Virus record (IMG/VR): IMGVR_UViG_3300009365_000061
Source of the DNA: a virus
Reading direction: 5' to 3' (one strand)
Length of the DNA: 49,590 nt
Part shown: piece after piece, positions 3,720 through 24,529 of the stretch
How positions within the stretch are numbered: the stretch's first letter is position 1
How the letters are laid out: every line of letters begins with the position of its first letter
Notes under the pieces: generated by a model
What the model was told of the DNA's origin: nothing
The model's input: the letters and a program-made list of their open reading frames with translations, nothing else
Database searches by the model: none
Position numbers and translations under genes: made by a program

Positions 3720-3772
3720 TTTCGTGTATCATGGAATTCAATTCTTGTTTGTCGATTATCCCTTCAGAATTC

Positions 3773-3801
3773 TTGACATATACCGATGCCGATGATATAT
3801 T
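3773..3801 (+). promoter_or_regulatory. sigma70-like promoter with extended -10
   Basis: TTGACA (3773-3778), 17 nt, TGaTATATT (-10 at 3796-3801). Lies 45 nt upstream of ATG 3846. Confidence 0.7.
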
Positions 3802-3845
3802 CACATTGTAAGGCATAGGGCCTTACACAATGAAAGGGAAAAACA

Positions 3846-4214
3846 ATGGCCAAGAAAACAACCCATAAATACCAGAGGTTCCAATTAAGGAAAAAGGCCA
3901 AGGTCAATGCAAAGAGGAAGGGGACCGGAGACCGGAGAATCCGGGTCATTGACCCCACAGGCAAGGCCCGGACCTTGTATCTTCATACCAAGGTGAACCG
4001 GACCGACAAAGAGGGAACCGGAGACCTCAATATCAGGGGTAACACATGCCCTATCCGGTTCAAGGCCTTGGGCCGGGGGAAATATCAGGTAGAAGGAAAA
4101 ACCCTCTCCTCCGGAGAGATGGCCAAAAATACCCCGGTTCTAATCGAGGCCTTTGGCCCTTCCCCTTGGGAATTCAAGGCAATCATGAAAGAAAAATATA
4201 TCCCTCTTGATTAA
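3846..4214 (+). CDS. hypothetical basic protein (122 aa)
   Basis: ORF with its own promoter and its own hairpin terminator (moron-like cassette). Lys/Arg-rich N-terminus. No family recognised. Confidence 0.75.
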   Translation: MAKKTTHKYQRFQLRKKAKVNAKRKGTGDRRIRVIDPTGKARTLYLHTKVNRTDKEGTGDLNIRGNTCPIRFKALGRGKYQVEGKTLSSGEMAKNTPVLIEAFGPSPWEFKAIMKEKYIPLD

Positions 4215-4222
4215 CCCTAACA

Positions 4223-4249
4223 GGGGAACCTCCGGGTTCCCCTCTTTCC
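4223..4249 (+). terminator. hairpin terminator, copy 1 of a duplicated 20-nt hairpin
   Basis: GGGGAACC tccg GGTTCCCC (4223-4242) followed by tctttcc. An identical hairpin is at 4653-4672. Confidence 0.55.
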
Positions 4250-4266
4250 AGAAAGGGAACACAACC

Positions 4267-4638
4267 ATGACAACCATTAAACAAAATTCACCCCTCCCTA
4301 TCAAAATCATAAGGGAGATGCACCAAGAATTCCACCCCAAACATACCGGATTGATACATCCCGATTGCCTTGTAATGGTATCTACCTATGGTCCGGTTAA
4401 TGGCCATGGGAAAAATATCATTCCCAAGAAGGTGGCCTTTGAAATCCACATCGTTCCCCTCCCTTGGGATAGGGAGACCGAACAGGAAATCCATGCAGAT
4501 TCCCTTGTGGAAGATATCATCTTCGAGGAAACCGAAAACCTCTTCACACAATCAAGGGCATATGACACAAGGGCCTTTATTGTATGGCCAAAAAAATATC
4601 AACAGGAAATTGTTTGCCCGGAAAGGGTAAATGATTGA
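4267..4638 (+). CDS. hypothetical protein (123 aa)
   Basis: ATG at 4267 lies downstream of the hairpin; the track start at 4207 would read through that hairpin. AAAGGGA upstream. Bracketed by two identical hairpins. Confidence 0.7.
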   Translation: MTTIKQNSPLPIKIIREMHQEFHPKHTGLIHPDCLVMVSTYGPVNGHGKNIIPKKVAFEIHIVPLPWDRETEQEIHADSLVEDIIFEETENLFTQSRAYDTRAFIVWPKKYQQEIVCPERVND

Positions 4639-5710: not shown

Positions 5711-5757
5711 AGGAGAGAATCAATGGCAATTGAGCTATTACAAGGCGATTGTCTTGA
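5711..5757 (+). repeat. 47-bp perfect direct repeat, left copy (flanks methyltransferase cassette)
   Basis: aggagagaatcaatggcaattgagctattacaaggcgattgtcttga is identical at 5711-5757 and 6447-6493 (736-bp period). Confidence 0.95.
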
Positions 5758-6469
5758 GAGGATGAAAGATATTCCTGATGGTAGTGTTGATATGGTTGTC
5801 ACATCGCCACCATATTTCAATGCAAGAGAATATTCTCAATACGAAAACATTGGTGTTTATATAAAAACAATGCAAGATATATTTTCAGTTATTTATACCA
5901 AGATGTGTGAGTCGAGAATGGTCATTGTTAATATATCTCCTGTATTAGTTGCAAGGGAGTCAAGAGCAAAACAGAGTTATAGAATACCGTTACCATTTTA
6001 TTTTGTTCCAATGATGGAAACTATTGGATTTGAATTTATTGAAGATATAATTTGGAAGAAACCTGAAGGTGCAAGTGCAAATAGAAATGGAGGATTTTTT
6101 CGACACAGAAAACCTTTGGCTTATAAACCTAATATAGTGACTGAATATATTTTTGTATTTAAGAAACCATCCAAGAAACTGATAGATAAATTTATAAAAA
6201 ATGATAGCTTGGTTGCTGATGGGTATGAGAGAACCAATGTTTGGGAAATGCAACCTGAAACAAAAAGCAAACATTCAGCACCGTTTCCGTTAGAATTACC
6301 AACAAAATGTATAACTTATTATAGTTATGAAGGATGGACTGTTCTTGACCCATTTATGGGAAGCGGAACTACGGGTGTTGCTTGTAAGAACTTAAACAGA
6401 AACTTTATAGGCATTGAGCTAGACCCCAACTATTTCGCTATAGCAGAGGAGAGAATCAATGGCAATTGA
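5723..6469 (+). CDS. DNA methyltransferase, beta-class N4-C/N6-A (SPPY type)
   Basis: Motif IV VVTSPPYFNAREY near the N-terminus and motif I VLDPFMGSGTTGVA near the C-terminus. N-terminal LLQGDCLE is typical of this class. Hand-counted 60-nt samples give about 23-40% G+C, against about 62% in neighbouring queD. Confidence 0.85.
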   Translation: MAIELLQGDCLERMKDIPDGSVDMVVTSPPYFNAREYSQYENIGVYIKTMQDIFSVIYTKMCESRMVIVNISPVLVARESRAKQSYRIPLPFYFVPMMETIGFEFIEDIIWKKPEGASANRNGGFFRHRKPLAYKPNIVTEYIFVFKKPSKKLIDKFIKNDSLVADGYERTNVWEMQPETKSKHSAPFPLELPTKCITYYSYEGWTVLDPFMGSGTTGVACKNLNRNFIGIELDPNYFAIAEERINGN

Positions 6470-6699: not shown

Positions 6700-7158
6700 A
6701 TGAAGATTAGCAAAACCCTGGAATTCGATGCCGGACACCGACTCATGAACGACTCCGGCCCCTGCTCCAACATCCACGGCCACCGCTACAAATTAGAGGT
6801 CACCCTCCAAGGGGACTTCAACCCCACCGGACATGGGACCGTGGTCAACTTCAGAGACATCAAGCAGGTCATAAACGATTACATCATCGTCGATTTCGAC
6901 CACTCCCTCATCCTCAACCCCGACGACCGACCCCTCATCGACTTCTGCATCGAGAGACAGTGGAAGACCGTGTTCATGCCCACGGAATGGAAAGAACCGA
7001 CTGCCGAAAACATGGTCACCTACTTCGCCGACATTCTGAGGAGTGCGATTGGGCCGGAAATCGGGACAGATATTCGACTCAAGAAGCTGGTCCTCTGGGA
7101 AACCCCAACCTGTTCAGCAACCTTGGAGGAAGATGAGATATACCCACCGAGCGATTAA
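6700..7158 (+). CDS. queD: 6-carboxy-5,6,7,8-tetrahydropterin synthase (QueD)
   Basis: LEFDAGHRL, CSNIHGHRYKLEV (Cys plus HGH motif), DHSLIL, PTAEN and WETP all match the PTPS/QueD family pattern. AAGGAG lies 5 nt upstream of the ATG. Confidence 0.85.
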   Translation: MKISKTLEFDAGHRLMNDSGPCSNIHGHRYKLEVTLQGDFNPTGHGTVVNFRDIKQVINDYIIVDFDHSLILNPDDRPLIDFCIERQWKTVFMPTEWKEPTAENMVTYFADILRSAIGPEIGTDIRLKKLVLWETPTCSATLEEDEIYPPSD

Positions 7159-7333
7159 CCGACTCAAACTCCTCGACCAAGCATTCAGGGATGTTCAGCT
7201 TGCCATGACCCTTGCCCTCATGGGCATCTTCGCCCATTGGGTGGAATCGAGCATCGGGGCCACTGTATCACTGGTGCTGGCCGGGGCCTTCATGTGGAAG
7301 GGCCAGAATCTTCGGAACCGAGCCATCTCATGA
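7133..7333 (+). CDS. small membrane protein (66 aa, two predicted TM segments)
   Basis: ATG at 7133 with GGAGG just upstream. Overlaps the queD end by 26 nt. Hydrophobic LAMTLALMGIFAHWV and IGATVSLVLAGAFMW. Its stop overlaps the next ATG (ATGA). Confidence 0.5.
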   Translation: MRYTHRAINRLKLLDQAFRDVQLAMTLALMGIFAHWVESSIGATVSLVLAGAFMWKGQNLRNRAIS

Positions 7334-7722
7334 ACTCGGTCTCCTGGCTCCTATTCGGAATAGGCCTTTTTGTCCTTCTGGGGGGTCTCCTCTCCTGGTG
7401 CCTCCGGGGCAAGGCCCGCAGGGCCTACTACCTCCACCTCCGGGCCGAGAGAGGGTGGCGGGATGCCCAAAGGCTCCATGAGAACATGGAACCCTTCGGA
7501 GAGGTCCGCTCCTCTGTCACCGGCGGTGAATACATCTTCCCCACCATGTCCAGTGGAAACTATGTCGACCTCATCGGTAGACAGATGGCCAAGACGGGTG
7601 TAACCTCAAGGGAGGCTGAAAGGGCATTCGTAAAATTAAGTCAAGAATTTGAACAAAAGGGTGAGAGAAAAAATGGTGACGATAGCCATACCGACACTGA
7701 ACCGAAAGGACCTCCTTCTTGA
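7330..7722 (+). CDS. membrane-anchored protein (N-terminal TM helix)
   Basis: ATGA overlap with the previous gene. N-terminus is VSWLLFGIGLFVLLGGLLSWCL followed by RGKARR. The tail overlaps the next gene by 50 nt. Confidence 0.6.
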   Translation: MNSVSWLLFGIGLFVLLGGLLSWCLRGKARRAYYLHLRAERGWRDAQRLHENMEPFGEVRSSVTGGEYIFPTMSSGNYVDLIGRQMAKTGVTSREAERAFVKLSQEFEQKGERKNGDDSHTDTEPKGPPS

Positions 7723-8311
7723 GTGCCTCGACGACCTCTTCCGCAACGGATTCACTGGCCACCTCCTGCTCATCGACAATGGCGACCAACACCTCTCAGA
7801 CATCCCCCTTCTTGAGGGTAAAACCTACACGATTCAGGAGAATCCGGAAAACCTGGGCGTGGCGGGTTCTTGGAACCAGATTGGTCGCATTGTGTTCGAC
7901 ACTATGGGGGAACCCGAAGTCTTCATCCTCAACGACGACATCGCCATGGGTCTCTCTTGGCCCGAAGCGGAGGACCGCTACAAAAGGGTGGGGTCTCTGG
8001 GCCTAATCCGGTCCCCCTACTTCTGGTCGGCCTTCCGATGGACTGCACACCTTCGGAGGGAGGTCGGCCTTTTCGATGAGAAATTCTTCCCCGCGTATCG
8101 GGAAGACAGCGACTACGAGAGAAGGTGCGAATTGGCCGGGGTGGCCGTTTACAGGGACCCATTCTTGGACCCCCAGGTGAAGAGGATGGAATCCTCCGGG
8201 AAGAACGCAGAAGCGATAGGCCCATCGACCATGCGCTACCTTGAGAAATGGGGCGGCCTCCCCGGCCACGAAACCTTCACCACCCCTTTCGGAGGGATGG
8301 TGAAGCTATGA
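7673..8311 (+). CDS. glycosyltransferase, GT-A fold (GT2-like), paralog A
   Basis: IAIPTLNRKDLL, LLIDNGDQ, NLGVAGSWNQ, ILNDDI (DxD-type) and FFPAYREDSDYERR (WbbL-like GT2 pattern). Alternative start at 7649. Confidence 0.75.
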   Translation: MVTIAIPTLNRKDLLLECLDDLFRNGFTGHLLLIDNGDQHLSDIPLLEGKTYTIQENPENLGVAGSWNQIGRIVFDTMGEPEVFILNDDIAMGLSWPEAEDRYKRVGSLGLIRSPYFWSAFRWTAHLRREVGLFDEKFFPAYREDSDYERRCELAGVAVYRDPFLDPQVKRMESSGKNAEAIGPSTMRYLEKWGGLPGHETFTTPFGGMVKL

Positions 8312-8973
8312 CCCGCCTCTGCATTGGAATCCCCACCATCAACTGCGCCGACCTCCTTTTGGTCTGCCTCCGGGGCCTCCAAGACTTGGCCTCCGCTGAA
8401 AACCTCGAATGGTGGATGGTGATTGTGGACAATGGCCACCAGAAGCTCGAATACCCTGCCACCCTGAACCCCCGCATCACGACCCTCATCAATAACGAGA
8501 ACAAGGGCGTGGCCGGGTCCTGGAACCAAATCTGCCGACTCGGCTTCGGCGCAGGGGCCGACAATGTCATGCTCCTGAATGACGATGTTGTCTACACTCC
8601 GGTCCCCGAGGCCCTCATTGCCCTCTGCCTGGAAAACCCCGGTATCACAACTGCCGAGGGTGGCCACCAGGGAGGATTTCAGAATGCACTCATTTCCCGA
8701 AGGGCCTGGGAAACGATTGGACCCTTCGATGAAATTTTCTTTCCGGCCTACTTCGAAGACTGCGACTATGGCTACCGGGCCAACCTCCTGGATATTCCGA
8801 TGGAATCGTCTCCTGATTTGGCTGTCGAAAAACAGGGGGGCAACTCCAACTCTCGGAGGAGGGACCCCTCCTTGAACCGGGGCCTAACCCTGGGGGCGGT
8901 GTATCAGAAGAAATGGGGAGGGGAGCCACATAAGGAAATTTTCACCGAACCCTACAATGGGGAGGCAAAATGA
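8308..8973 (+). CDS. glycosyltransferase, GT-A fold (GT2-like), paralog B
   Basis: ATGA overlap with paralog A. Same motif series: IGIPTINCADLL, VIVDNGHQ, NKGVAGSWNQ, LLNDDV, FFPAYFEDCDYGYR, KWGGEP. Confidence 0.75.
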   Translation: MTRLCIGIPTINCADLLLVCLRGLQDLASAENLEWWMVIVDNGHQKLEYPATLNPRITTLINNENKGVAGSWNQICRLGFGAGADNVMLLNDDVVYTPVPEALIALCLENPGITTAEGGHQGGFQNALISRRAWETIGPFDEIFFPAYFEDCDYGYRANLLDIPMESSPDLAVEKQGGNSNSRRRDPSLNRGLTLGAVYQKKWGGEPHKEIFTEPYNGEAK

Positions 8974-9713
8974 TACGGTTCAAACATTCCGGCGACATCG
9001 GAGATGTTCTATTCTCCCTGCCAACGGCCCGGGAGATTTGCTACCAATGCATGACCGACGACTACGGCTTCACCCCGGCCCTTTTCTACCTGGACCCATC
9101 CGGAACCCCTCCCTGTGGCAACCGATTCGGCCTGGAGGCCGCAGAGGCCCTAGCACCCCTATTGGATGCACAACCCTGGATAGAAGAGGTTCGAATCTGG
9201 GACGATGAAGAGGTTGACTATGACCTCAACGACTTCCGAAAAACTCAATCCTTCATGTGGTTCAAGACGGTCCCCCTCCCCTACCTGTGGGCCGAAGCCT
9301 TCGGGGTTAACAAGAGTGTGTGTCATCGGAAATGGCTGGAGGTGCCCGACATCAACGAGGACCCCATTCCCTTTCCGAGACAGGTAGCCATTTCACGGAC
9401 GGCCCGATACCGAGACGATGCCTTTCCTTGGTATCATATCCTGGAGGCTTTCGGGGACGATGCCTTTTTCGTCGGGCTTGAAGAGGAGAGGGATGATTTC
9501 TGCCTGGAACACGGGATAGAACTCCCATGGATGGAGACCAAAAACCTGCTCGAAGCGGCAAGGCAAATCAAGCATTCGAAACTCTTTATCGGCAATCAGG
9601 GCGGACTGTTCACCATCGCCGAGGGTTTGCAGCACCCGTCGATTGTCGAGACACCTCCCGATTACACTAACAACATCATCAACAATCGGCAGAACTGTGT
9701 CTATATCCGATGA
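8970..9713 (+). CDS. glycosyltransferase, GT9 (heptosyltransferase)-like
   Basis: ATGA overlap. N-terminal HSGDIGDVLFSLPTA and C-terminal LLEAARQIKHSKLFIGNQGGLFTIAEGLQHPSIV resemble the GT9 signature (LGD...P ; a.lfiGnDsG..HlA.al..P). Confidence 0.5.
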   Translation: MIRFKHSGDIGDVLFSLPTAREICYQCMTDDYGFTPALFYLDPSGTPPCGNRFGLEAAEALAPLLDAQPWIEEVRIWDDEEVDYDLNDFRKTQSFMWFKTVPLPYLWAEAFGVNKSVCHRKWLEVPDINEDPIPFPRQVAISRTARYRDDAFPWYHILEAFGDDAFFVGLEEERDDFCLEHGIELPWMETKNLLEAARQIKHSKLFIGNQGGLFTIAEGLQHPSIVETPPDYTNNIINNRQNCVYIR

Positions 9714-9745
9714 AAATTGACTTGGTCAAAATAGGAGGGTTTTTC

Positions 9746-10543
9746 ATGCCGAAGAAGTATCCACTGTTTCTCCAGGCCATGGGGTCTTCACTCGACAAGG
9801 CCGAAATCAAGCGACTGGCTCGAAACCCAGAATACGGCTCGGTCATCACCGGCCCCTACGGAATGACTCGGATGAAGCAGTTGGGGTTGATGGGCAAGGC
9901 CATCGCCATGCTCAACCCCTTCCTCCCCATCCGGCGACATTCCAAGGACTATGACATCTATCCGGCACCGGAGAAGGTCACCGACAGGGACATCAAGCTC
10001 TGGTGGTCCAGCGAATACTACTCCTACGGCTATCCCATGACCATGGAATGGGCGCACACCTTTGCGGATGCTGTGGTCCAATACATCGAGGTGGAGCAAC
10101 CGCTCGGCATCATGCTCGATGACTGGAAATCGGCGCATCGGTGGTGGGATATGTCCGAGGCCGACTACCAACTCATGCACCCACCGAACCTCCCGGAAAT
10201 CCTCGAAACCATTGAGCGTAAAATTTCCGAAGCCCTGTGGGACCGCCCCCAGGGGGGAGTCCTCCTGGTCAACGGCGACTTCCAACGCCGGTCCACCACA
10301 CTCCGGTTCTGGGAAGGGTTCGGCAGGTCCTACAATCCTATCAGGGAAGTCTTCACGAAGGCCGAGCCTGGGGATTATGTTCAGGTGAACGAGCCGACGA
10401 GAAAGAACAAGTTCATGGTGGGGTTCCTGATGGGGCGCAAGAAACATAATCCCATCTGCATCTCGGTTCCTGATGGACAGCGGTTGGTGGAGAATGGTAT
10501 TCTGAACATACCGACACCGAAACAGTATCCATGGAGGTCATAA
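9746..10543 (+). CDS. hypothetical protein (possibly a TIM-barrel glycan-processing enzyme)
   Basis: ATG at 9746 with AGGAGGG 6 nt upstream; alternative ATGA-coupled start at 9710. GIMLDDW and GGVLLVNGD loosely recall GH114-like hydrolase-like TIM barrels. Weak. Confidence 0.7.
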   Translation: MPKKYPLFLQAMGSSLDKAEIKRLARNPEYGSVITGPYGMTRMKQLGLMGKAIAMLNPFLPIRRHSKDYDIYPAPEKVTDRDIKLWWSSEYYSYGYPMTMEWAHTFADAVVQYIEVEQPLGIMLDDWKSAHRWWDMSEADYQLMHPPNLPEILETIERKISEALWDRPQGGVLLVNGDFQRRSTTLRFWEGFGRSYNPIREVFTKAEPGDYVQVNEPTRKNKFMVGFLMGRKKHNPICISVPDGQRLVENGILNIPTPKQYPWRS

Positions 10544-10549
10544 CTGCTT

Positions 10550-10720
10550 ATGAAAATCCAACAAAATCAAAAGAAATCGGTTAAAATCACTAGAGATGCA
10601 AACGAGAAATTAGTTCTGGAACTGAACCGACAGGTCGGGAATGTCCCGGTCATGAATGAACTGTCCCGCGGATGGCACCTCATCAACTGCAAGGACTTCC
10701 TGAATGTATCATCTGGTTGA
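10550..10720 (+). CDS. hypothetical small protein (56 aa, below ORF-track cutoff)
   Basis: Hand translation: MKIQQNQKKSVKITRDANEKLVLELNRQVGNVPVMNELSRGWHLINCKDFLNVSSG*. Fills the gap between 10543 and queE and overlaps the queE start by 17 nt. Confidence 0.4.
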   Translation: MKIQQNQKKSVKITRDANEKLVLELNRQVGNVPVMNELSRGWHLINCKDFLNVSSG

Positions 10721-11366
10721 GATTTTCACCTCACTCCAGGGCGAAGCCTTCTGGACCGGAAAGCCGATGACTTTCATCCGGTTCGCCGGGTGCAATCTGA
10801 CCTGCTCCTGGTGCGACACCGACTGGACCACCAAACTCCCTCCGATGGACGAACAGGACATTGTTGATGCCATCGCCCGGGAGAGAAGGCCTGAGGGTGC
10901 CCACCGGGACCGGCACAAGGTCGATACGGTCTGCCTCACCGGAGGGGAACCTCTCCTCCAGTGTCTTCCGCTCCTTCCACGGTTGAAGGAGGAGGGTTAT
11001 TTTGTCCACATCGAGACCAACGGGACCCTTGATATTCCGGACGAGTCGAAGAAGTATGTGGATTGGGTGACCTGTTCCCCGAAGGTGGGGCAACCACTTC
11101 ACCTGAAAGCGATGAACGAGATGAAGGTGGTTCTGGCCAAGGGAGAGGTGCCCTGTGTTTCGCCGAGAGTGAGGGCACACGATTGGGGCAAGAGTTGTCT
11201 CTACTGGTATGTGCAACCCCGGGGCGGGGACTCTGGATTGGGTCCCGGGATTTCAAATAGCAACAAGATAATCCGAAAGAATGTCAATTGGTGCATCGAA
11301 TACGCGAGCAAGAACCCGCCCTGGCAGGTGTCCTTGCAGATGCACAAGTACCTGAGGTTGAGGTAG
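10704..11366 (+). CDS. queE: 7-carboxy-7-deazaguanine synthase (QueE, radical SAM)
   Basis: N-terminal EIFTSLQGEAFWTGKPMTFIRFAGCNLTCSWCDT matches the QueE signature, including the CX3CX2C-type cluster. Confidence 0.85.
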   Translation: MYHLVEIFTSLQGEAFWTGKPMTFIRFAGCNLTCSWCDTDWTTKLPPMDEQDIVDAIARERRPEGAHRDRHKVDTVCLTGGEPLLQCLPLLPRLKEEGYFVHIETNGTLDIPDESKKYVDWVTCSPKVGQPLHLKAMNEMKVVLAKGEVPCVSPRVRAHDWGKSCLYWYVQPRGGDSGLGPGISNSNKIIRKNVNWCIEYASKNPPWQVSLQMHKYLRLR

Positions 11367-11368
11367 CC

Positions 11369-11938
11369 ATGGGATTTCCAAAGTGCCGAGCGAAGGAATT
11401 TTTCGAGGAGTTGTGTCTCCGGGTGGGCGAGAACCCCATGCGGGAGGGCTTGAGAGAAACCCCCCGGAGGATTGCCGGTGCCTGGGATGCGCTCTACCAG
11501 GGCTATTCCCAGGACCCGGTGAAGATTCTCAGTAGTGCGAAGTTTGAGGCTGAGACCGAACACATGATTATCCTGCGGGACATCGAATTCTTCTCAACCT
11601 GCGAACACCACCTCCTCCCCTTCTACGGAAAGGCCCATGTAGCCTATATCCCTGGCAAGGAGATGGTCGGTGTGTCGAAAATCGCTCGGGCCTTGGATGC
11701 CATCGCCCGGAGGATGCAGGTCCAGGAGAGGCTTACCGGCCAATTGGTTGATGCCCTCCAGACCGCCCTGGAGCCGAAGGGGGTGATGGTGGTCGTCGAC
11801 GCGGTCCACCTTTGCACCCGCGCTCGGGGTGTGGAGAAACAGAATTCCGTCATGACCACCTCGGCCATCTCTGGAGTGTTCAGGGACTCTGGAGAGGCGA
11901 GGGCAGAATGCTTGGGGTTGATTCGTGATGAGCGATGA
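11369..11938 (+). CDS. folE: GTP cyclohydrolase I (FolE)
   Basis: ETPRRIAGAW, FFSTCEHHLLPF, VSKIARALDAIARRMQVQERLT. The ATG at 11369 lies 2 nt after the queE stop; the track start at 11288 lies inside queE. Confidence 0.85.
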   Translation: MGFPKCRAKEFFEELCLRVGENPMREGLRETPRRIAGAWDALYQGYSQDPVKILSSAKFEAETEHMIILRDIEFFSTCEHHLLPFYGKAHVAYIPGKEMVGVSKIARALDAIARRMQVQERLTGQLVDALQTALEPKGVMVVVDAVHLCTRARGVEKQNSVMTTSAISGVFRDSGEARAECLGLIRDER

Positions 11939-12164
11939 CTTTGTGATGACCTATCAGGAATACGCGGAGAACTACTCCGGGGGCCTGTGCCCCGTCTGCG
12001 GGCGATTCTTCCACATCAACGAAGACCATTCGGTGGCCACCTCCTGCAACTGCTTTCAGGAGCCGGTGCTGGTCCAGACACCTGCTTCTTGCGGGGGTGG
12101 CTACCCTACTCTCATAGAAAGGGCTGAATATGAAGGCGATTGTACTCCTGTCGGGGGGAGCTGA
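11928..12164 (+). CDS. small Cys-rich protein (putative zinc-binding)
   Basis: 78-aa ORF overlapping the folE end and the queC start. CPVCGRF...SCNC...SCGGG. Its reality is uncertain because both ends overlap neighbours. Confidence 0.35.
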   Translation: MSDDFVMTYQEYAENYSGGLCPVCGRFFHINEDHSVATSCNCFQEPVLVQTPASCGGGYPTLIERAEYEGDCTPVGGS

Positions 12165-12696
12165 TTCCCGATTACTTCTTCGGAGGATTGCCAATGTCAA
12201 CGGACCCAAGAACACCCTGGCACTCTTCTGCGATTACGGACAACTCATGCCAGAAAAGGCGGCGGCTCGGGTGGCGGCACACCATGAGGGGACACCCTTC
12301 CTGTGCAAGTCTTTCCCTTACACGCCCCCCTCGCACCTGACTGATGTCTACCACCAGGGGAATCCCCATACTACCGAGAAGGTTCCTGAGTCTTGGGTCC
12401 CAGGGCGAAACCTTATGTTGGCATCCATAGCCCTGTCCATTGGGGAGGCCATGGGGGCCGATGCTATCTACTTCGGGTTTAATGCAGAGGACGCGGAGAG
12501 CTATCCTGACTGTTCCCATGAATTCATGGAACACATCAACCACCTCTCCACGAAATGCACCGGACGGCGGATGGCCGTGTCGGCACCGTTCATCAACCAG
12601 CCGAAGGCGGCTATCCTTGCAGAATTGGAGAAGGAGGGCCTCACCGAAGAGGACTACATCTCCGGATACCCAGAGACGAGGCTTGCCGATGATTAG
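12130..12696 (+). CDS. queC: QueC-like 7-cyano-7-deazaguanine synthase, lacking the C-terminal Zn-Cys cluster
   Basis: PP-loop AIVLLSGGADS, WVPGRNLML and SYPDCSHEF align with QueC. Only 188 aa, with no Cys after residue ~150, where QueC normally carries CX8CX2CX2C. Confidence 0.75.
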   Translation: MKAIVLLSGGADSRLLLRRIANVNGPKNTLALFCDYGQLMPEKAAARVAAHHEGTPFLCKSFPYTPPSHLTDVYHQGNPHTTEKVPESWVPGRNLMLASIALSIGEAMGADAIYFGFNAEDAESYPDCSHEFMEHINHLSTKCTGRRMAVSAPFINQPKAAILAELEKEGLTEEDYISGYPETRLADD

Positions 12697-13741
12697 AGTG
12701 GTGATGCAGCACAACGCCATCATGAACTGGTCTCACATCATGCGCGGGCGGTTCGGGGACCTTGCCCGCGAGGTGGGGAAGCAGAGGGAGGGGTTCAATA
12801 TCGGAATTGCCTTCCCTGCGGCCCTCGAACAGAACGAAAAGACCTCCATCCTAGACGACATCTCTCAGAAGGGGGTGTGGGCAACCGGAGCGGCCCTCCA
12901 CGCGGAGGAGGGGGATTGTATCATCGTGACCGATGTCCAGGATGTGGACCCTGGCCCACTCACCGGCCTCAAGGGGTGTTTCAAAATCGGCATGGTCCAC
13001 GGTGGCCCCCATGAACTCTGCGACTTCACCCTCGACCGAGGCCCTGCCTACAGGCCCCTCTTCGAGGCGCAGTTGAAGTGCTACGACCAACTCTGGGTCA
13101 CCACCACCTACCACTCCCACCTCCTTCAGCAGACCTATCGAATCTCGCACGACAAAATCAAGGTGGTGGGTCTGCCCCTCGATGTAAGGCTGGCCATCGG
13201 AGAGAGCGACCTGATTCCCCTGGAGGAGGGCGAGGAATTCGACCTGGACATTCCCTGGGCCGAGAAAAAGGACGAGGTCCTTTTCTGCTCCCGGCAGACC
13301 AAGGACAAGGGCTACGACCTTGCCATGCACCTCGTCAACTCGACGGACCTCCCGGTGAAAATCCAGAGATACTCAACCCGGAGGGGCCTCTATCGAGCCT
13401 TGGCCGAACACAAGTGGGTCCTGATACCCTCCCGGCGCGACACCTTCGGCATCCTGGCCTCGGAGGCCGCGATGTTGGGGTCGGTGCCCCTGGTACCCTA
13501 CTCCTTCTGCTACCCGGAGATTCTAACCCAACAGTGGCCCTTCTACCTGGGCGAGGGGAAGAAGTATAACGAGGACCTCACCCCGGATGTGGTGGCCGCA
13601 TCGGTGGAGAGAATCATGAATATGGAGATACCGGAGTCGGAGATTGACAAGCACCTGTCGGGGGCCGTGGTTCGATATATGCAGTATGATGAGGTGTTCG
13701 ACGCATCGGTCCTGACCCTGTTCTCAAGGTTCGCGGAATGA
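12689..13741 (+). CDS. glycosyltransferase, GT-B fold (GT4/GT1-like)
   Basis: ATG at 12689 overlaps the queC stop by 8 nt, and its stop overlaps the dpdA-like ATG (ATGA). C-terminal domain LFCSRQTKDKGYDL ... PSRRDTFGILASEAAMLGSVPLVP follows the E/FG...EA..G.P pattern. The track start at 12440 lies inside queC. Confidence 0.65.
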   Translation: MIRVVMQHNAIMNWSHIMRGRFGDLAREVGKQREGFNIGIAFPAALEQNEKTSILDDISQKGVWATGAALHAEEGDCIIVTDVQDVDPGPLTGLKGCFKIGMVHGGPHELCDFTLDRGPAYRPLFEAQLKCYDQLWVTTTYHSHLLQQTYRISHDKIKVVGLPLDVRLAIGESDLIPLEEGEEFDLDIPWAEKKDEVLFCSRQTKDKGYDLAMHLVNSTDLPVKIQRYSTRRGLYRALAEHKWVLIPSRRDTFGILASEAAMLGSVPLVPYSFCYPEILTQQWPFYLGEGKKYNEDLTPDVVAASVERIMNMEIPESEIDKHLSGAVVRYMQYDEVFDASVLTLFSRFAE

Positions 13742-14817
13742 AGATTTTCTTTGTAGCCTCTTCTTCCGTGGGCCACATGAAGAGGGCCAGAGAGGTGATG
13801 AAACGCTACCCAGGGGAGGTGTGCTATCTTAAATCCTTCGCATATTGGACTTCCCCCAATGCGTTCAAGTATTGGGCGTGGTTACGCCGGAATGGTGACG
13901 AGTTCATGGTGGATTCAGGAGCATATACCTATCTGGCAGCAGATGGAACTCTCGACATTCCCTACCCTGATTGTGACAGCTACATTGACCACTATTTTCG
14001 ATACCTTCGAAGAATCGAGCCTCTATGGGACCGATTTGTAGAGTTGGACCTCTACAAGTTGTTCGGAGTGGATTTCATCATGGACACGACTTGGCCCCGG
14101 ATGTTCGATTTCCAGAGAGAGACCGGGAAACCTGCAATCTTCGTCTGGCACAAGGAACTTGGACAAGAGGGCTGGATGCGAATGCTCCAGAACGAACAGG
14201 TCCAATGGGTAGGACTGAACAAGGACCTTGGGTACGGGAATTTCCCATTGTGGCGAAGGATGGTGACCGAGGCCCGGGAGTACGGGAAGAAGATTCATGG
14301 ATTCGCTGCGGTGAGGAGGCCCCTCCTCGAAGCTGTCGACATTGACTCGGCAGATTCCACTACGGCCTTCACCACTACAGACAAATTCGGTCAATCCGAA
14401 TTCTACGACTCCCGGGTCGACGGCCATGGTTACATGATTACCAAAAACTCCCTCCGGTCCCTCAAGAGGACCCTCAAGAAGGCTGGCGGCAACACACAGA
14501 AGGCTCACAACCGGCACCTCCGAGAACTTCGACACCACCTTGATTTTGACATCGGTGGCCGAATTGATGGACGGAGAGCCTCCAAGGATGCTATGTGTGT
14601 GGAAAACATCGCCCATCTGGTGGAGATGCAGAGGGAAGTCACCAAGTTGTGGGAGGTAAGGAGACAGCGTGGATACTCGGAACATACCGGTCGAACACAT
14701 CTACCCGAACAACTGGAACCCGAATCGGCAGAAACAGACGACCTTCGAGAAGGAGAAGGAGTCGATTCGGAAGTTCGGGATGATAGACCCCCTTCTAGTC
14801 AGGGACCTCACGACTGA
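13738..14817 (+). CDS. dpdA: DpdA-like (TGT-family) DNA guanine transglycosylase
   Basis: FMVDSGAYTYL (TGT DSGG-type catalytic Asp motif) and KIHGFAAVRRPLLEAVDIDSADSTTAF (HGFG...SaDS.aw pattern of DpdA). Context is next to queC/E/D and folE. The last 149 nt overlap the ParB-like gene. Confidence 0.65.
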   Translation: MKIFFVASSSVGHMKRAREVMKRYPGEVCYLKSFAYWTSPNAFKYWAWLRRNGDEFMVDSGAYTYLAADGTLDIPYPDCDSYIDHYFRYLRRIEPLWDRFVELDLYKLFGVDFIMDTTWPRMFDFQRETGKPAIFVWHKELGQEGWMRMLQNEQVQWVGLNKDLGYGNFPLWRRMVTEAREYGKKIHGFAAVRRPLLEAVDIDSADSTTAFTTTDKFGQSEFYDSRVDGHGYMITKNSLRSLKRTLKKAGGNTQKAHNRHLRELRHHLDFDIGGRIDGRRASKDAMCVENIAHLVEMQREVTKLWEVRRQRGYSEHTGRTHLPEQLEPESAETDDLREGEGVDSEVRDDRPPSSQGPHD

Positions 14818-15373
14818 CGGGGTCCCCCGATTCGAAATCATCGACGGCGAACACCGGTGGCGGGCATCCAAGGATGTCGGCCTCGATGCCATCCCCTGCG
14901 TCATCACCCATTTCGATGACGAGACCGCACGGCGACTCACCATCACCATGAATGAACTTCGAGGGGACGCCGACCCCATCCTCCTCGCGGAAATGCTCTC
15001 AGACCTTACGGAATCGGTCGAGGTGAATGACCTTCTCTCGACGATGCCCTGGTCTGAAAAGCAATTGTCCAACATTCTGGAGGTGGCCTCGCTTGATTTG
15101 GATGAACTCGCGCAAGATGACATTATCCTCCCGGGCGAGGATGAATCGGAGGAGTGGGTATCGCTGGCGGCAATCTTCGGGCGCAAGCAAATGCCTCGGG
15201 ATGCCGCTGCCCTGGTGGAGTCAGAGGTGGATAGGTTGGCAGGGTATTATGGACTCACGCGGTCCAACCGATTCCAGGCTCTCGAAATCATGGCGGCACA
15301 CTCGGCGCAAACGCCTCTTGAGGAGGCTGACCCGAGAGCCAAGGTAAAGGGCCTCGATGCCGAAGCCGATTAA
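14669..15373 (+). CDS. ParB/Srx N-terminal domain protein (DpdB-like or packaging-associated)
   Basis: GTG start 5 nt after AAGGAG; the frame is closed by TAA at 14657. NIPVEHIYPNNWNPNR, SIRKFGMIDPLLV and IIDGEHRWRASKDVG match ParB-N (GERRWRA-type motif). Confidence 0.75.
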   Translation: MDTRNIPVEHIYPNNWNPNRQKQTTFEKEKESIRKFGMIDPLLVRDLTTDGVPRFEIIDGEHRWRASKDVGLDAIPCVITHFDDETARRLTITMNELRGDADPILLAEMLSDLTESVEVNDLLSTMPWSEKQLSNILEVASLDLDELAQDDIILPGEDESEEWVSLAAIFGRKQMPRDAAALVESEVDRLAGYYGLTRSNRFQALEIMAAHSAQTPLEEADPRAKVKGLDAEAD

Positions 15374-17229: not shown

Positions 17230-19506
17230 GTGGGCGTTCTGACAGACCAAGTCTTCGGAGACACGAAGATTTCCGAGGAGGCCCTCGGCCCAAGAGAACG
17301 GGCCATGTCGGTCCTTTCTCCCTTCCCTCTCGAATCCATTATCGGCCCCGCCTACAACGACCCTGCTTCTCAGCAGTTCGGTCTGGACATTTTCGATGAA
17401 ATGTACGCCCTGGACCCGCAAGTCCGGGCCTGTCACCACACTAAGGTCATGGCTAGACTCATGACGGGGTGGGAGTTCATCCCTTCTGGGAACAAGAAGG
17501 TCGATGAGTTCATCACTTACACCACGACCAACATGGCCGGGTCCATGCACGACTTCCTCAGGGACCTCATGGAGGCCCTGAAGTATGGATTCGCGGTGGT
17601 GGAGATTGTCTGGGACCGTTACACCGATGGCCCCTACCGGGGCTACCTGGGCATCAAGGCCCTGAAGGCGAAGCCCGCCAAGAGCTTCCGATTCGACACG
17701 GACCGGAGAGGGAACCTCAAGAAGAGGGGCATCCGGCAGCATATCAATGGCCTCCCTCAGGACATCAAGCTCCCCAGGGACAAATTCATCGTCTACACCT
17801 ACCAGAAGGAGCCGGGAGGCTTTTACGGTAGGAGCGATTTCCAGCCGGTATATCGGCACTATTTCCTGAAACAAGCGTTAGAGCGTTGGTGGTCGGCCTA
17901 TCTCGAAAAATTCGCCGGTCCCACGGCCATCGGGAAATTCCCCCAGGGTGCAACCGAATCAGAGAAGAAGGAAGTTCTCGCCTTTCTCCGAAAGCTCCAG
18001 AACAACTCCGCGGCCATCTTCCCGGAGAAGTGGGAAATCGAACTGCTGGAGGCCAAGGAGGGTGGCTCCGAGAACTTCATCCGGGCCTTGACCTACCACA
18101 ACAAGATGGTGGCTAGGGGCATCCTGGTGCCCGACCTCATCCAGGACCAGGGCGACAGGTCCGGCTCCTACTCTCTAGGGCAGGTCCATGCCTCTAATTT
18201 CCTCTGGGTTCTCAAGGGCATCGGCAGGGAGTTGGAGACCGTAGTCGATGAGCAGTTGGTTCGCAGGGTCATTGATGTGAACTTCTCCGTCGACAAATAC
18301 CCGACATTCCAATTCATGGAATTTGAACCAGAAAATGTTCAGTCAGTTGCGTCGATGTTCCTCTCTCTGGTCAACGGAGGCATCATCGCCCCGGATGACC
18401 CTGTTATCAGGCGCAGACTGAACCTTCCGGCAGAGGGGGCCGAAAAATTAGAAAAGCGGCCCAATGTGACGGTCGGTGGGCTCCCGGGCGCACCGGTGCG
18501 AACCTCTGGGGTCCAACCTCCAAATGGCCGTGTTCCCTCTGCCGGTTCTTCTCCCACCGCTGGAGACAAATCTCCGATGTTGAATTCGGAGGATTTCGCG
18601 GTGAAGTACATTGTGACCTCTCGGGTTGACGGCCACCGACACTTTGCCATCACCGATGAATGGGGTGACGGGGTGACCACCTGGGGAGAATCCCGGGACG
18701 GCATCCCCCACATCCATCAGGTCCGGAAATGGGCGGTCATCGAGTCTGAGGAACATGAACATGACCTGCCCCATGAGAATGCCCCGAAGGATGCCCTCTC
18801 CAAGAGGCGCATCCGGGCCGAGGCTGCCAGTGACCCCTACAGCCCCCCCGGTGGTGGCGGTGGCCCCAAAGATGAGGCCCACGGTGGGCATAACCCTCCA
18901 GGGAGTGGCCTATCGGAGCTTCCCGAGTTGATGTTCACCGACCCTGAAGCCCTCTTGGGTGAGCATTTTAGGATTGCAGGAGAACAATACTTGGCGAAGG
19001 TGGCCAGGGCAGGAGGACCCTCCGAGGGCATGAGGACTCTGGATGTTCCGAAGATAAAGCAGTTGGGGAGGTTCAAGGAGGACCTCGCCGGGATGATGAC
19101 TGAACAGATGTGCCAGGGGGCCTTGGGTGCCCTTTTGGCCGAAGAGGGTGACGAGGAGATTCCGCTTCCCGATGGAGAATCCCCCGAGGGTGCCCTTTGG
19201 GAAGTCTATGGAGACCTCTACCCCCTCCTTAGTGAGAAGGTGAAAGAAGCCGAGGAAATTGCCTATTCGATGGCCGGGTCGATGGATGGATTGGTCCGGG
19301 AAGCATCGCATCGAGGGAAGGTGGCCATGGCAGCCGGAAAGAGTCCGGATGAAGTGATGAGTGCCGTGGACACTGTTCTCAGGGCAGAGGAACCCCGTTT
19401 GACCGCGACGGAGGAATTGAGCGAATGTCTGCATACTTGGAGGATTACCGGAAGAACCGTGATGAGCGATTGGCTCGACAGAAACCAGCGGAACTCGACC
19501 GGCTAG
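17230..19506 (+). CDS. portal protein (Mu gp29/DUF935-like) with ~300-aa C-terminal extension
   Basis: GTG start after AAGGGG. The N-terminal ~430 aa, with LKYGFAVVEIVW, fits the DUF935 portal pattern and the position after terL. The C-terminal part has a His-rich segment (DGHRHFAITDEWGDGVTTW...PHIHQV...EEHEHD), a G/P linker and a possible MuF-like tail. Confidence 0.75.
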   Translation: MGVLTDQVFGDTKISEEALGPRERAMSVLSPFPLESIIGPAYNDPASQQFGLDIFDEMYALDPQVRACHHTKVMARLMTGWEFIPSGNKKVDEFITYTTTNMAGSMHDFLRDLMEALKYGFAVVEIVWDRYTDGPYRGYLGIKALKAKPAKSFRFDTDRRGNLKKRGIRQHINGLPQDIKLPRDKFIVYTYQKEPGGFYGRSDFQPVYRHYFLKQALERWWSAYLEKFAGPTAIGKFPQGATESEKKEVLAFLRKLQNNSAAIFPEKWEIELLEAKEGGSENFIRALTYHNKMVARGILVPDLIQDQGDRSGSYSLGQVHASNFLWVLKGIGRELETVVDEQLVRRVIDVNFSVDKYPTFQFMEFEPENVQSVASMFLSLVNGGIIAPDDPVIRRRLNLPAEGAEKLEKRPNVTVGGLPGAPVRTSGVQPPNGRVPSAGSSPTAGDKSPMLNSEDFAVKYIVTSRVDGHRHFAITDEWGDGVTTWGESRDGIPHIHQVRKWAVIESEEHEHDLPHENAPKDALSKRRIRAEAASDPYSPPGGGGGPKDEAHGGHNPPGSGLSELPELMFTDPEALLGEHFRIAGEQYLAKVARAGGPSEGMRTLDVPKIKQLGRFKEDLAGMMTEQMCQGALGALLAEEGDEEIPLPDGESPEGALWEVYGDLYPLLSEKVKEAEEIAYSMAGSMDGLVREASHRGKVAMAAGKSPDEVMSAVDTVLRAEEPRLTATEELSECLHTWRITGRTVMSDWLDRNQRNSTG

Positions 19507-22117: not shown

Positions 22118-23134
22118 ATGGTCCATCAGGTTCTCAGGCATCAGGTCATGACCGAACTCGTTCGCAAGTTCGAGGTCGACTATGCCCTGGGTCAGAACTA
22201 CTTCCGTGGAGGTGTCCCCACCCCCACGAACGAGTACACCTTCGATATTCAGGAGATGAGTCGGGACCTTGCGAAGTTCAGGGACCCGAACGCCGAGGCG
22301 GGAATGGTCCCCTTGATGACCCGCAAGAAAACCTCGGTTCAGCTTCCGACTATCAGGGAGAAGAAGATTGTCAAGGGCACGACCATGAACTGGCTTCGTC
22401 GTCCTGGCACCGAGCATCAGCAGTATGGAGCGCAGCTTCTTGCTGATGAACTTTCCGAACTCAACCAGCGGCTCGAACAGCGCAAGGAGTGGTGGCGTTG
22501 GCAGCTTCTCACGGGCGGCGATGCCAGCGGCTACTACAACATCTCTTGGGATGATGAAGCGGGGGTCACCGTCACCGGTACCTACGACTTCGGATTCGAC
22601 AAGACCGGCCACTTCTACACGGTGGTCTCGGGGCAGGACTGGTCGACCACTTCGGTCACCAACATCGCCTCGGACATCATCACCGGAAAGAAGAAGATTG
22701 CTCAGGACACCGGGCGTATGCCCACCCGGGCAGTCACCACCGAGACTGTGTCGAAGTATATGATTCAGAATACTTCGGTCCAGGCTCTCCTCGGGGATTC
22801 CCTCAAGGACCAGATTGCTCTGAGCGGCTACATCAAGCGGTTCATGGGCATCGACATCTCGGTCTACGAGGCGGGTTATGTTGCCGATGGCACCACAACC
22901 TGGAGTCCCTTCATCACGGACGACTACTTCATCATGCTCGGGCCTGACCCGGTCGGCGATGAAGTGGACGCTCCTCCGGTGGACCCCCGCGCTGGCGGGT
23001 CTGTTGGCAAGTTCTCCAAGTCCTGGGTCCAGGAGGACCCTGCCGGAACCTGGATTCTTGTCGAGCAGACTTGGCTGGCAGGTCTCACCAAGCCGGACAA
23101 TATCTACATCATTGATACGGTCTCGGCGACCTAG
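22118..23134 (+). CDS. major capsid protein (lambda gpE-like)
   Basis: 338 aa with AAGGAGGG RBS. Pattern of PTNEYTFDIQ..., RLEQRKEWWRWQLLTGG, ISVYEAGY and a WVQEDPAG...L tail fits the Phage_cap_E family. Position is consistent. Confidence 0.75.
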   Translation: MVHQVLRHQVMTELVRKFEVDYALGQNYFRGGVPTPTNEYTFDIQEMSRDLAKFRDPNAEAGMVPLMTRKKTSVQLPTIREKKIVKGTTMNWLRRPGTEHQQYGAQLLADELSELNQRLEQRKEWWRWQLLTGGDASGYYNISWDDEAGVTVTGTYDFGFDKTGHFYTVVSGQDWSTTSVTNIASDIITGKKKIAQDTGRMPTRAVTTETVSKYMIQNTSVQALLGDSLKDQIALSGYIKRFMGIDISVYEAGYVADGTTTWSPFITDDYFIMLGPDPVGDEVDAPPVDPRAGGSVGKFSKSWVQEDPAGTWILVEQTWLAGLTKPDNIYIIDTVSAT

Positions 23135-23197: not shown

Positions 23198-24529
23198 ATG
23201 GACGAGAACAAGAAACCTGAAGTGGTAATTGAAGTGGCACCTCCGAAGAAGCGTATCCTGATGTGGTGTGATGGCCCTATGGTCACCACCGGGTTCGGAA
23301 CGGTTGCTCGGAATGTAGCCAAAGCCCTCCATGACACCGGTCGCTATGAGGTTCATTTCGTGGCGGTCAACTTCTGGGGGGAACCTTTCGACCCGAACGA
23401 GTTCCCGTATGTGGTCATGCCCGCTGCCATCGAAAGGCGCGAGGCACTCAAGACCCAGGTCGGGGACCCATTCGGTGGATTCAATTTCGCCAACGCCTAT
23501 TGGAATGGCGAATTCGATGCCGTCTGGGTCATGAACGACATCAACATCCTGGCCCAGAGGGCGCAGATTTTCGAACAGGGTCCCCAGGGGCAGAAGAAGC
23601 AGCCGAAGTGTCCGGTCGTCTACTATTTCCCCATCGACTCCATCTGGCTCGACAAGCAGATGCTCGCGGGGTTCGAGAAGGCCGACTATCCGGTCAGCTA
23701 CAACGAATACGCCAAGAACCTCATCGCGGGAGTGGACCCTGCCCTCGCCGAGAAGATGAAGGTCATCAACCACGGCTCCGACATCGACACCTTCCACCGC
23801 ATCCCGGACCAGGGAGAGGTGATGGATTTCCGCAGGAACACTCTCGGTGTCGATGACGGGACCATCCTGTTTATCCAGGTGGCGAGGAACCAGTTCAGGA
23901 AATCGAACGGGGACCTCATCCTGGCCTTCGCCGACTTCAAGAAGAAGAATCCCACGAAGAAGGCGAAACTCTATATGCACATGAACCCGCAGGACCAGGG
24001 ACCCATGCTCTTTGGAGCGGTCATGTCTGCGGGGCTGAAACTTGGAGAGGATGTTGTGTTCCCCTCCAACCATTCTCCCGGTCGGGCGGTTCCCCGGGAA
24101 CTGCTCAACATGATTTACAACGCGGCTGATGTCTTCGTCACGCCGACTCTCGGAGAAGGATGGGGTCTGCCCATCACCGAGGCCATGGCTGCCGAGACCC
24201 CGGTTATCGCTCCGGACAACACCGCGATTTCAGAGATTCTCAACGCTGGCGACGAGGATGGGCTGCGAGGGTGGCCGGTGCCCTGTGGAGATTGGCCGAT
24301 GGGCCTTGTCCACATCGACGGCACCGGGTTCCGCCCTCGCGTGGACATCGAGGCCATGAGTGCCTTGATGGATGAGGTAGGGACCATGGCTCTCGAACGC
24401 AGGGCCACGGGAGAGGTTCCAGAAGGTCTCCGGCCCAGACTCGAACGGGCCTTGGAGTATGCGAGGGAGATTTCCTGGAAAAACATCGGAGACCAGTGGG
24501 TCTCCCTAATCGACGAGGTGGTGAAATGA
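23198..24529 (+). CDS. glycosyltransferase, GT-B fold (GT4/group-1)
   Basis: N-terminal RILMWCDGPMVTTGFGTVARNVAKAL and C-terminal FVTPTLGEGWGLPITEAMAAETPVIAPDNTAISEIL (canonical EX7E region). Located between the capsid and connector genes. Confidence 0.75.
   Translation: MDENKKPEVVIEVAPPKKRILMWCDGPMVTTGFGTVARNVAKALHDTGRYEVHFVAVNFWGEPFDPNEFPYVVMPAAIERREALKTQVGDPFGGFNFANAYWNGEFDAVWVMNDINILAQRAQIFEQGPQGQKKQPKCPVVYYFPIDSIWLDKQMLAGFEKADYPVSYNEYAKNLIAGVDPALAEKMKVINHGSDIDTFHRIPDQGEVMDFRRNTLGVDDGTILFIQVARNQFRKSNGDLILAFADFKKKNPTKKAKLYMHMNPQDQGPMLFGAVMSAGLKLGEDVVFPSNHSPGRAVPRELLNMIYNAADVFVTPTLGEGWGLPITEAMAAETPVIAPDNTAISEILNAGDEDGLRGWPVPCGDWPMGLVHIDGTGFRPRVDIEAMSALMDEVGTMALERRATGEVPEGLRPRLERALEYAREISWKNIGDQWVSLIDEVVK

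Follow-up and report, generated by a model that had tools for sequence, protein, structure and literature searches.

The stretch of viral DNA analysed here, IMG/VR record IMGVR_UViG_3300009365_000061, is a phage genome of 49,590 nucleotides (referred to below, at its full length, as the window), and its plus strand carries a block of genes in which the pathway to 7-deazaguanine bases is interleaved with four glycosyltransferases (GTs). One of the four, a GT4-type enzyme encoded between a queC-like gene and the gene of a predicted DpdA-type DNA guanine transglycosylase, belongs to a family that is found almost exclusively beside dpdA and que genes, whereas the other three, two of family GT2 and one of GT9 fold, come from families that occur overwhelmingly in phages without them. 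By a modest preference we read the block as a 7-deazaguanine DNA-modification module in which the GT4-like enzyme would tailor the base with a sugar, the other glycosyltransferases forming a separate glycan cassette. Gene identities, protein folds, conserved motifs and conserved neighbourhoods were observed directly, and with them it is plausible, at the level of sequence, that the GT4-like family is a tailoring enzyme of the 7-deazaguanine pathway that places a sugar on the base. In the literature that we searched, we found no earlier description of a GT4-type enzyme paired with DpdA.

The GT4-like family and its tie to DpdA

A single-sequence, word-indexed search with the GT4-like protein found 3 proteins among 5.8 billion, all from syntenic relatives, and tblastn gave weak matches in two unrelated DpdA loci. 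Since the single sequence found too few relatives, a profile was built from an alignment of five lineages. The search of IMG/VR with this profile identified 17 loci with a member of the family, and a DpdA-like open reading frame (ORF) was present in 15 of them, nearly always immediately downstream; one of the two loci without a detected DpdA stops at a contig edge. FolE, QueD or QueE was encoded at 12 of the 17 loci. Neighbourhoods were also counted in the best or closest 80 IMG/VR loci each of the GT2, GT9-like and DpdA families, and a DpdA-like ORF was found in 3 of the 80 GT2 loci as against 15/17 for the GT4-like family (Fisher p = 7e-13). An earlier sequence-only reading of this DNA, which was made by a model without database searches, had proposed that the glycosyltransferases of the block act together with the deazaguanine enzymes, and this stands for the GT4-like enzyme, whose family adjoins DpdA as described, and falls for the two GT2 enzymes and the GT9-like enzyme, whose families have que genes at 1/80 and 0/80 loci, respectively. 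The same reading had suggested a survey of whether homologues of these enzymes co-occur with dpdA in other phages; the GT4-like family does so, and homologues of the GT2 and GT9-like enzymes turned up in phages without que or dpdA genes, an outcome named in advance as counting against a joint role.

The GT4-like family is diverse, with about 20 clusters at 50% identity, and the adjacency to DpdA or que genes covers about 14 or more divergent clusters in several gene orders (QueC-GT-DpdA, FolE-GT-rSAM-DpdA, FolE-rSAM-GT-DpdA and DpdA-GT-QueD, rSAM being a radical S-adenosylmethionine (SAM) protein). The same profile found 16 further members in a large protein collection, and all three of the contexts examined (loci L192-L194 in our labelling) were deazaguanine clusters. 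Among cultured phages, ACP17 of Acidovorax encodes a member (gp124) between FolE and QueE, and PA5oct of Pseudomonas encodes one (gp167) near QueE, as do PA5oct relatives; the family is represented, too, in phages of Burkholderia, Sinorhizobium, Xanthomonas and Synechococcus. Comparison of ACP17 gp123 and PA5oct gp168 with the DpdA profile by hhalign showed no relationship, and dpdA was thus not located in either phage.

The AlphaFold2 (AF2) model of the GT4-like protein (pLDDT, the predicted local distance difference test, 76; predicted template modelling score, pTM, 0.80) shows the GT-B fold with two Rossmann domains. Foldseek placed it closest to retaining GT4 enzymes, first MshA (1.4e-9), followed by BshA, GlgM and PglA, with TM of 0.6, and by LmbT and SenB, and thereby the GT4 label of the sequence-only reading was borne out. 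The best viral structural match was ACP17 gp124; of the 50 best structural matches listed, none was a T4 DNA glucosyltransferase. The donor-site signature is conserved across 19 GT4-like sequences and consists of R202, E259 and the motif ETFGxxxxE, which reads DTFGILASE in the window, and the five-lineage alignment also conserves H104 and G106. By sequence, the window protein gave no significant PDB match and matched in Pfam only GT4-conflict, at 20 bits (below the cut-off of 26), and the member of the family in L091 reached 40.5 bits against a cut-off of 26.4.

Many GT4-like loci lack QueC and have a radical SAM protein of 433 amino acids (aa) instead (positions 3787-5088 of L157; also L174, L176, L180, L184 and L189), and L192-L194 encode a short-chain dehydrogenase/reductase (adh_short) or a methyltransferase together with a shorter radical SAM protein (319-338 aa) and QueC. 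The radical SAM, dehydrogenase/reductase and methyltransferase companions are hints of further deazaguanine chemistry.

The deazaguanine core

All four enzymes of the synthesis of 7-cyano-7-deazaguanine (preQ0), i.e., FolE, QueD, QueE and QueC, are encoded in the block with their signature motifs, and every gene named by the sequence-only reading was found in its place with the motifs quoted for it (Table 1). The Pfam match of the QueC-like protein spans profile positions 1-186 of 210, and PDB QueC 2pg3 was matched at 2e-8. The protein ends at 188 aa and the C-terminal zinc-binding Cys cluster is absent from it, so that its product could be 7-amido-7-deazaguanine (ADG) or preQ0; it is possibly a QueC that has been split, or else the ADG synthase variant QueC*. 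The Cys-rich ORF of 79 aa that precedes and overlaps the QueC-like gene carries the motif CPxCG...SCxC...SCGGGYPT, and may be a zinc module split from QueC that compensates for its lost cluster.

The product of the gene downstream of the GT4-like gene is accepted here as a DpdA-family enzyme, for which DNA base exchange is predicted. It had no match to the Pfam family TGT (tRNA-guanine transglycosylase) and no significant PDB match by sequence; its relatives score 1.7e-24 and 8.6e-40 to phrog_887, the same family that is matched by the window protein. The DSG, HG and DST positions are invariant in an alignment of DpdA-like relatives down to 23% identity, and the invariant D59-S-G and D206-S-T may correspond to the catalytic residues of TGT. 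Of 80 related DpdA-family loci in IMG/VR, 51 had an adjoining FolE, 43 QueE, 43 QueC and 33 QueD. An apparent loss of DpdA in the relative L004 was a gene-calling artefact, as the ORF is present there with a GTG start. A ParB-like ORF flanks DpdA in 22/80 viral DpdA loci. The bacterial DpdA needs DpdB, a ParB-like ATPase, and the ParB_N protein of the window is possibly a DpdB-like helper or a packaging-associated ParB.

A probably separate class of glycosyltransferases

The two GT2 genes, GT2a and GT2b, are paralogues as the sequence-only reading had held, and both products match phrog_29879. GT2b scored 28.9 bits to Pfam Glycos_transf_2 against a cut-off of 23.3, and the NDD and ED.DY motifs are invariant in the alignment of the family. 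Among GenBank phages GT2b matched only gp015 of Synechococcus phage S-CBS4 and phiPsal1_012 of Pontimonas phage phiPsal1 (7e-15 for the match of the window GT2 to this type of cassette). In both phages a three-gene cassette of a GT-B glycosyltransferase, a GT2 and a SAM methyltransferase is situated within the virion structural module, and in phiPsal1 it directly follows the capsid gene; no que or dpdA genes were found in the complete genomes of S-CBS4 and phiPsal1 by annotation and tblastn. In IMG/VR we found at least 483 viral relatives of the GT2 family, and of its best 80 loci 48 had a GT-B partner, 20 a methyltransferase and only one que genes, that locus being from a relative of this phage.

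The window has its own GT-B partner. The sequence-only reading counted four glycosyltransferases, which are all present in the block, and missed a fifth, which directly follows the capsid gene and is homologous to S-CBS4 gp014 (2e-29) and phiPsal1_010 (1e-13). The cassette SAM methyltransferase is not in the window and is present in the L001 relatives, where a methyltransferase that matches those of the cassettes (9e-37 and 7e-33) stands in place of one GT2 paralogue. The closest cultured-phage homologue of the capsid-adjacent GT-B, with 35% identity, was found in Tetrasphaera phage TJE1 (L092), where it sits upstream of the terminase with a nucleotidyl transferase, a guanylate kinase, a nucleotide-sugar epimerase and a methyltransferase.

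The GT9-like protein had no Pfam or PDB match by sequence and no match in GenBank phages by tblastn. Foldseek with its AF2 model found 3tov, a Veillonella GT9 enzyme, at 1.6e-7, and then WaaC, TibC and WaaF, which confirmed the GT9 label of the sequence-only reading. TibC is a protein heptosyltransferase. The family has 458 viral relatives, and none of the best 80 loci carried que or dpdA genes (0/80); the two of its contexts that were read in detail are glycan clusters, with genes for a GT-B, a GT2 and a nucleotide-sugar epimerase/dehydratase (L276) and a GT2-type gene with a methyltransferase and a cupin (L275).

A separate glycan, probably one borne by virion proteins, is in our view the most likely product of GT2a and GT2b, of the GT9-like enzyme and of the GT-B next to the capsid gene. 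What points to virion proteins is position, namely immediately behind the capsid gene in both the window and phiPsal1, and within the structural module in S-CBS4. These enzymes, together with the methyltransferase of relatives, would represent a glycan cassette that is widespread among phages, is split in this genome and has a function independent of deazaguanine.

The gene that follows the GT9-like gene encodes a basic protein that was given as 277 aa by the sequence-only reading; it has 265 aa, and 277 results from reading from an upstream ATG at 9710. Its family is rare (18 cluster representatives among 1.84e9 proteins), a homologue sits in contigs without que or GT genes, and no match was found in GenBank phages by tblastn. 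A 156-aa ORF after the portal gene (19425-19895) is syntenic with an ORF of the L001 relatives that has Cupin_2/AraC_binding domains, and one of the scanned window ORFs, not pinned individually, matches the Cupin_2/AraC_binding families. The 156-aa ORF could be a sugar isomerase or epimerase of a glycan pathway.

Proposed pathway and alternatives

The virus would be a 49.5-kb tailed phage that replicates with host polymerases. In the pathway that we propose, FolE, QueD and QueE would make 7-carboxy-7-deazaguanine (CDG), the short QueC-like enzyme would turn CDG into ADG or preQ0, and DpdA would, once the DNA has been replicated, put the deazaguanine base in the place of guanine. The GT4-like enzyme would put a sugar from a nucleotide-sugar on the 7-deazaguanine, either on the free base before its insertion by DpdA or on the base already in DNA. 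The first order has a precedent in huimycin, in which HuiG, an enzyme of the GT4 family with the Methyltransf_11 enzyme HuiC as its partner, N-glycosylates O6-methyl-preQ0 at the 2-amino group, and it is favoured by the acidic charge of the GT4-like protein and by its structural neighbours of the small-molecule type. The phage has no QueF, QueA or QueG genes, and thus the cyclopentenediol group of queuosine cannot be made. What we infer from the enzyme families and their neighbourhoods is the identity of acceptor and donor, the sequence of the steps and the presence of a sugar on DNA. A wider version of the proposal, which we hold as possible and somewhat short of probable, is that the virion DNA of this phage, ACP17 and PA5oct bears a sugar-bearing 7-deazaguanine made by a DpdA-co-evolved GT4-type enzyme, and that the sugar may be lengthened by further glycosyltransferases where a lineage is rich in them, as L136 and the window are.

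Several points weigh against the proposed division of labour. The sugar on the base is deduced from enzyme family and gene neighbours. The GT4-like protein is acidic (pI 5.2, net charge -15; family median pI 6.1) and does not look like a DNA-binding enzyme, and pI cannot decide the acceptor. As for the chemistry, preQ0 has no obvious acceptor on its 7-substituent, and the pocket of a canonical TGT would not accommodate a base glycosylated at N2, which favours addition of the sugar after insertion. A GT4-like gene was found in only 3/80 of the DpdA loci closest to the window, so the function of DpdA does not need it; an optional tailoring enzyme would be expected to be distributed in this way. 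On the side of the glycan cassette, the neighbours of the GT-B partner in other phages mostly lack known function, and a PHROG scan of 74 ORFs flanking it was too mixed to prove a general location in structural modules. Gene order in relatives also blurs the two classes. In each of the three sub-lineages of the phage clade, QueD and QueE have a GT2 gene between them; in L136 the order is QueC-GT4like-GT2-DpdA, and downstream come genes for an epimerase and an RGP-like mutase, three more GT2 genes and the GT-B partner; and L056 has GT47-like, GT2 and GT-B genes beside a DpdA-like gene. Since L136 and L056 mix GT2 and GT-B genes with DpdA, the two classes may cross-talk.

Improbable, and still the best placed of the alternatives, is that none of the glycosyltransferases touches DNA, and that the GT4-like enzyme too acts on virion proteins, the host envelope or other cell components, its adjacency to DpdA reflecting shared early or middle expression or a mobile accessory block. 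This would agree with the acidity of the protein and with nearest structures that are generic GT4 enzymes of small molecules, lipids and proteins rather than T4 DNA glucosyltransferases, and no known deazaguanine derivative in the literature searched bears a sugar. However, near-exclusive adjacency to DpdA or que genes over about 14 or more clusters and several gene orders is hard to explain if the functions are uncoupled, and the generic phage glycosyltransferases (GT2 and GT9-like) do not have such a pattern.

We regard it as quite unlikely that all the glycosyltransferases act in series on DNA, with the GT4-like enzyme priming the deazaguanine and the others, perhaps including the capsid-adjacent GT-B, extending it to an oligosaccharide. 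The genes are indeed co-linear and overlapping in one block, and the place of GT2 between QueD and QueE and the combinations in L136 and L056 would fit such a series, but the great majority of GT2 and GT9-like loci, also in complete genomes, have no que or dpdA genes, the usual GT-B partner follows the capsid gene here and in phiPsal1, and overlapping junctions are found genome-wide. L029, a 64%-identical relative, keeps the GT4-like enzyme and DpdA yet has one GT2 and neither the GT9-like gene nor the gene of the 265-aa protein; between its GT4-like and DpdA genes (3641-4631) lie a cytidylyltransferase-like gene (PF01467) and a 195-aa ORF. Very unlikely, in our view, is a soluble glycosylated 7-deazapurine that is not installed in DNA (a huimycin-like metabolite or masked base pool, serving as decoy, inhibitor, storage or export form), for although the huimycin precedent, in which a free preQ0 derivative is glycosylated, the small-molecule acceptors of the best structural matches (MshA, BshA, LmbT and SenB) and the acidic charge would suit it, known deazapurine metabolite clusters are without dpdA while the GT4-like family is tied to dpdA, and the phage context and the suspected G modification of PA5oct point to DNA.

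Genome and layout of the block

A terminal direct repeat of 119 bp (bases 1-119 are identical to 49472-49590) indicates a complete or circular assembly of 49,471 bp, and no DNA polymerase and no member of a thymidylate-synthase/hydroxymethylase family was found among the ORFs scanned over the whole genome, in agreement with what the sequence-only reading had said of a complete genome without these enzymes. The run of overlapping genes begins with the methyltransferase, QueD, two small ORFs, GT2a, GT2b, the GT9-fold enzyme and the 265-aa protein, continues with a 56-aa ORF, QueE, FolE, the 79-aa Cys-rich ORF, the short QueC and the GT4-fold enzyme, and ends with the DpdA-like enzyme, the ParB_N protein, TerS, TerL and the portal protein. 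The junction overlaps noted by the sequence-only reading are real, with ATGA at 7330 (joining an upstream 66-aa ORF to the 130-aa ORF), 8308, 8970 and 13738 (joining the GT4-like gene to DpdA) and an overlap of 8 nt at 12689 (joining QueC to the GT4-like gene). ParB, TerS and TerL are also joined by overlaps, as are nearly all genes of the genome; translational coupling is therefore not discriminating and says little on function, and the use that the earlier reading made of it as an argument for joint function was dropped.

The remaining genome encodes a Mu-type portal, an E-type capsid protein, a tail tube, a tape measure, Rad52, a lambda-O-like replication protein and a single-stranded DNA-binding protein (SSB), and a tail protein of 2288 aa (32447-39313) is packed with Ig-like domains (Cep192/HYDIN/ASH/DUF1573). 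No close relatives were found among GenBank phages by blastn or in IMG/VR with single-protein queries. The 56-aa ORF has its ribosome-binding site and start within a stretch of 42 nt (10533-10574) that shows 93% identity to an intergenic region of Desulfofustis phage LS06-2018-MD01, which may be a host hint or a shared regulatory element.

Table 1. Position and supporting matches of the features discussed (class 1, predicted to act with the deazaguanine pathway; class 2, assigned to the separate glycan cassette).
Feature	Coordinates	Strand	Support
Run of overlapping genes	5723 to beyond 17118	+	N6/N4 DNA methyltransferase through portal protein
N6/N4 DNA methyltransferase, head of block	5723..6469	+	Pfam N6_N4_Mtase 1.5e-43
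QueD (6-carboxy-tetrahydropterin synthase)	6700..7158	+	Pfam PTPS 1e-30; motif CSNIHGH
130-aa protein, hydrophobic N-terminus	7330..7722	+	no Pfam or PHROG match
GT2a, GT-A glycosyltransferase (class 2)	7673..8311	+	phrog_29879 7.7e-19; Pfam 18.9 bits, below cut-off
GT2b, paralogue of GT2a (class 2)	8308..8973	+	Pfam Glycos_transf_2 1.3e-6; phrog_29879 2.2e-20
GT9-fold (heptosyltransferase-like) glycosyltransferase (class 2)	8970..9713	+	AF2 pLDDT 90.7
265-aa basic protein, rare family	9746..10543	+	no Pfam, PHROG or PDB match
QueE (CDG synthase, radical SAM)	10704..11366	+	Pfam Radical_SAM 1.6e-10; motif CNLTCSWC
FolE (GTP cyclohydrolase I)	11369..11938	+	Pfam GTP_cyclohydroI 4e-66
79-aa Cys-rich ORF	11925..12164	+	kept in L001, L004; no family match
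QueC-like PP-loop enzyme, 188 aa	12130..12696	+	Pfam QueC 1e-27; motif SGGADS
GT4-type GT-B glycosyltransferase (class 1)	12689..13741	+	GT4 fold; DpdA-associated family
DpdA-type DNA guanine transglycosylase (predicted)	13738..14817	+	phrog_887 'queuine tRNA-ribosyltransferase' 1.3e-23
ParB_N-domain protein	14780..15373	+	Pfam ParB_N 2.9e-18; directly 3' of DpdA
Major capsid protein	22118..23134	+	Pfam Phage_cap_E
Fifth glycosyltransferase, GT-B	23198..24529	+	Pfam Glycos_transf_1 6.4e-13; directly after capsid gene

Significance

To our knowledge, every deazaguanine modification of DNA described so far is a small aglycone, and hydroxymethyl-pyrimidines are the only DNA bases known to bear sugars. 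If true, the proposal would give the first glycosylated purine base known in any DNA, and purine hypermodification would gain a chemically new class from a GT family that accompanies DpdA, with a bearing on restriction, CRISPR and glycosylase-based defences. The deazaguanines described from phages are dPreQ0, dADG, dG+, dPreQ1, mdPreQ1, fdPreQ1, dDG and dCDG (Hutinet 2019, Cui 2023); a glycosyl or sugar component is not mentioned in either paper, and no report of a glycosylated deazaguanine in DNA was found in the literature searched. The pathway of ACP17 with DpdL and DpdA was not reconstituted in E. coli, and further enzymes were suggested as required (Cui 2023). The DNA of PA5oct resists restriction enzymes with G in their sites, the modification being unidentified in that report (PMC12191111). 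The GT4-like family is a candidate for what lies behind both the G modification of PA5oct and the failed reconstitution of DpdA and DpdL of ACP17, and as ACP17 and PA5oct are cultured, the hypothesis is directly testable. The analysis also indicates that gene order alone over-called three of the four glycosyltransferases of the block (GT2a, GT2b and the GT9-like enzyme).

Comparison with known systems

Mycobacteriophages have virion glycosylation cassettes of the Che8 type, and no homology to mycobacteriophage glycosyltransferases was found for the window genes at the thresholds used. The putative virion glycosylation cassettes of S-CBS4 and phiPsal1 share with the window the homologous GT2 and the GT-B on the capsid side, and the methyltransferase with its relatives, but the window copy is split between the que block, which holds the GT2 genes, and the place behind the capsid gene, where the GT-B lies. 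The T4 alpha- and beta-glucosyltransferases and the sugar-pyrimidine systems resemble the proposed pathway in the GT-B fold and in the transfer of a sugar onto a modified base after replication as a counter-defence; their acceptor is a hydroxymethyl-pyrimidine, whereas no hydroxymethylase or thymidylate-synthase homologue was seen in the scanned ORFs of the window. Eukaryotic tRNAs carry mannosyl- and galactosyl-queuosine, in which a sugar is placed on a 7-deazaguanine derivative by GT4- and GT2-family enzymes, but there it is tRNA that is glycosylated, on the cyclopentenediol of its queuosine.

The huimycin and dapiramicin clusters are similar in that a GT4-family GT-B enzyme is encoded beside preQ0 genes, and a Methyltransf_11 enzyme is also present in the L001 cluster; the likeness of HuiG to the GT4-like protein of the window is one of family membership. 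Those clusters, however, are actinobacterial, direct the synthesis of small molecules and are without dpdA, whereas the window is a phage with dpdA, and the methyltransferase of L001 is homologous to those in the cassettes of phages without que genes. The phage DpdA systems have the same set of FolE, QueD, QueE and QueC with a DpdA-family transglycosylase, act after replication, and likewise encode accessory tailoring enzymes (DpdL, DpdM and DpdN) beside dpdA. The window differs from them in a QueC without its zinc tail, in the separate Cys-rich ORF before it, and in an accessory enzyme that is a GT4-type glycosyltransferase.

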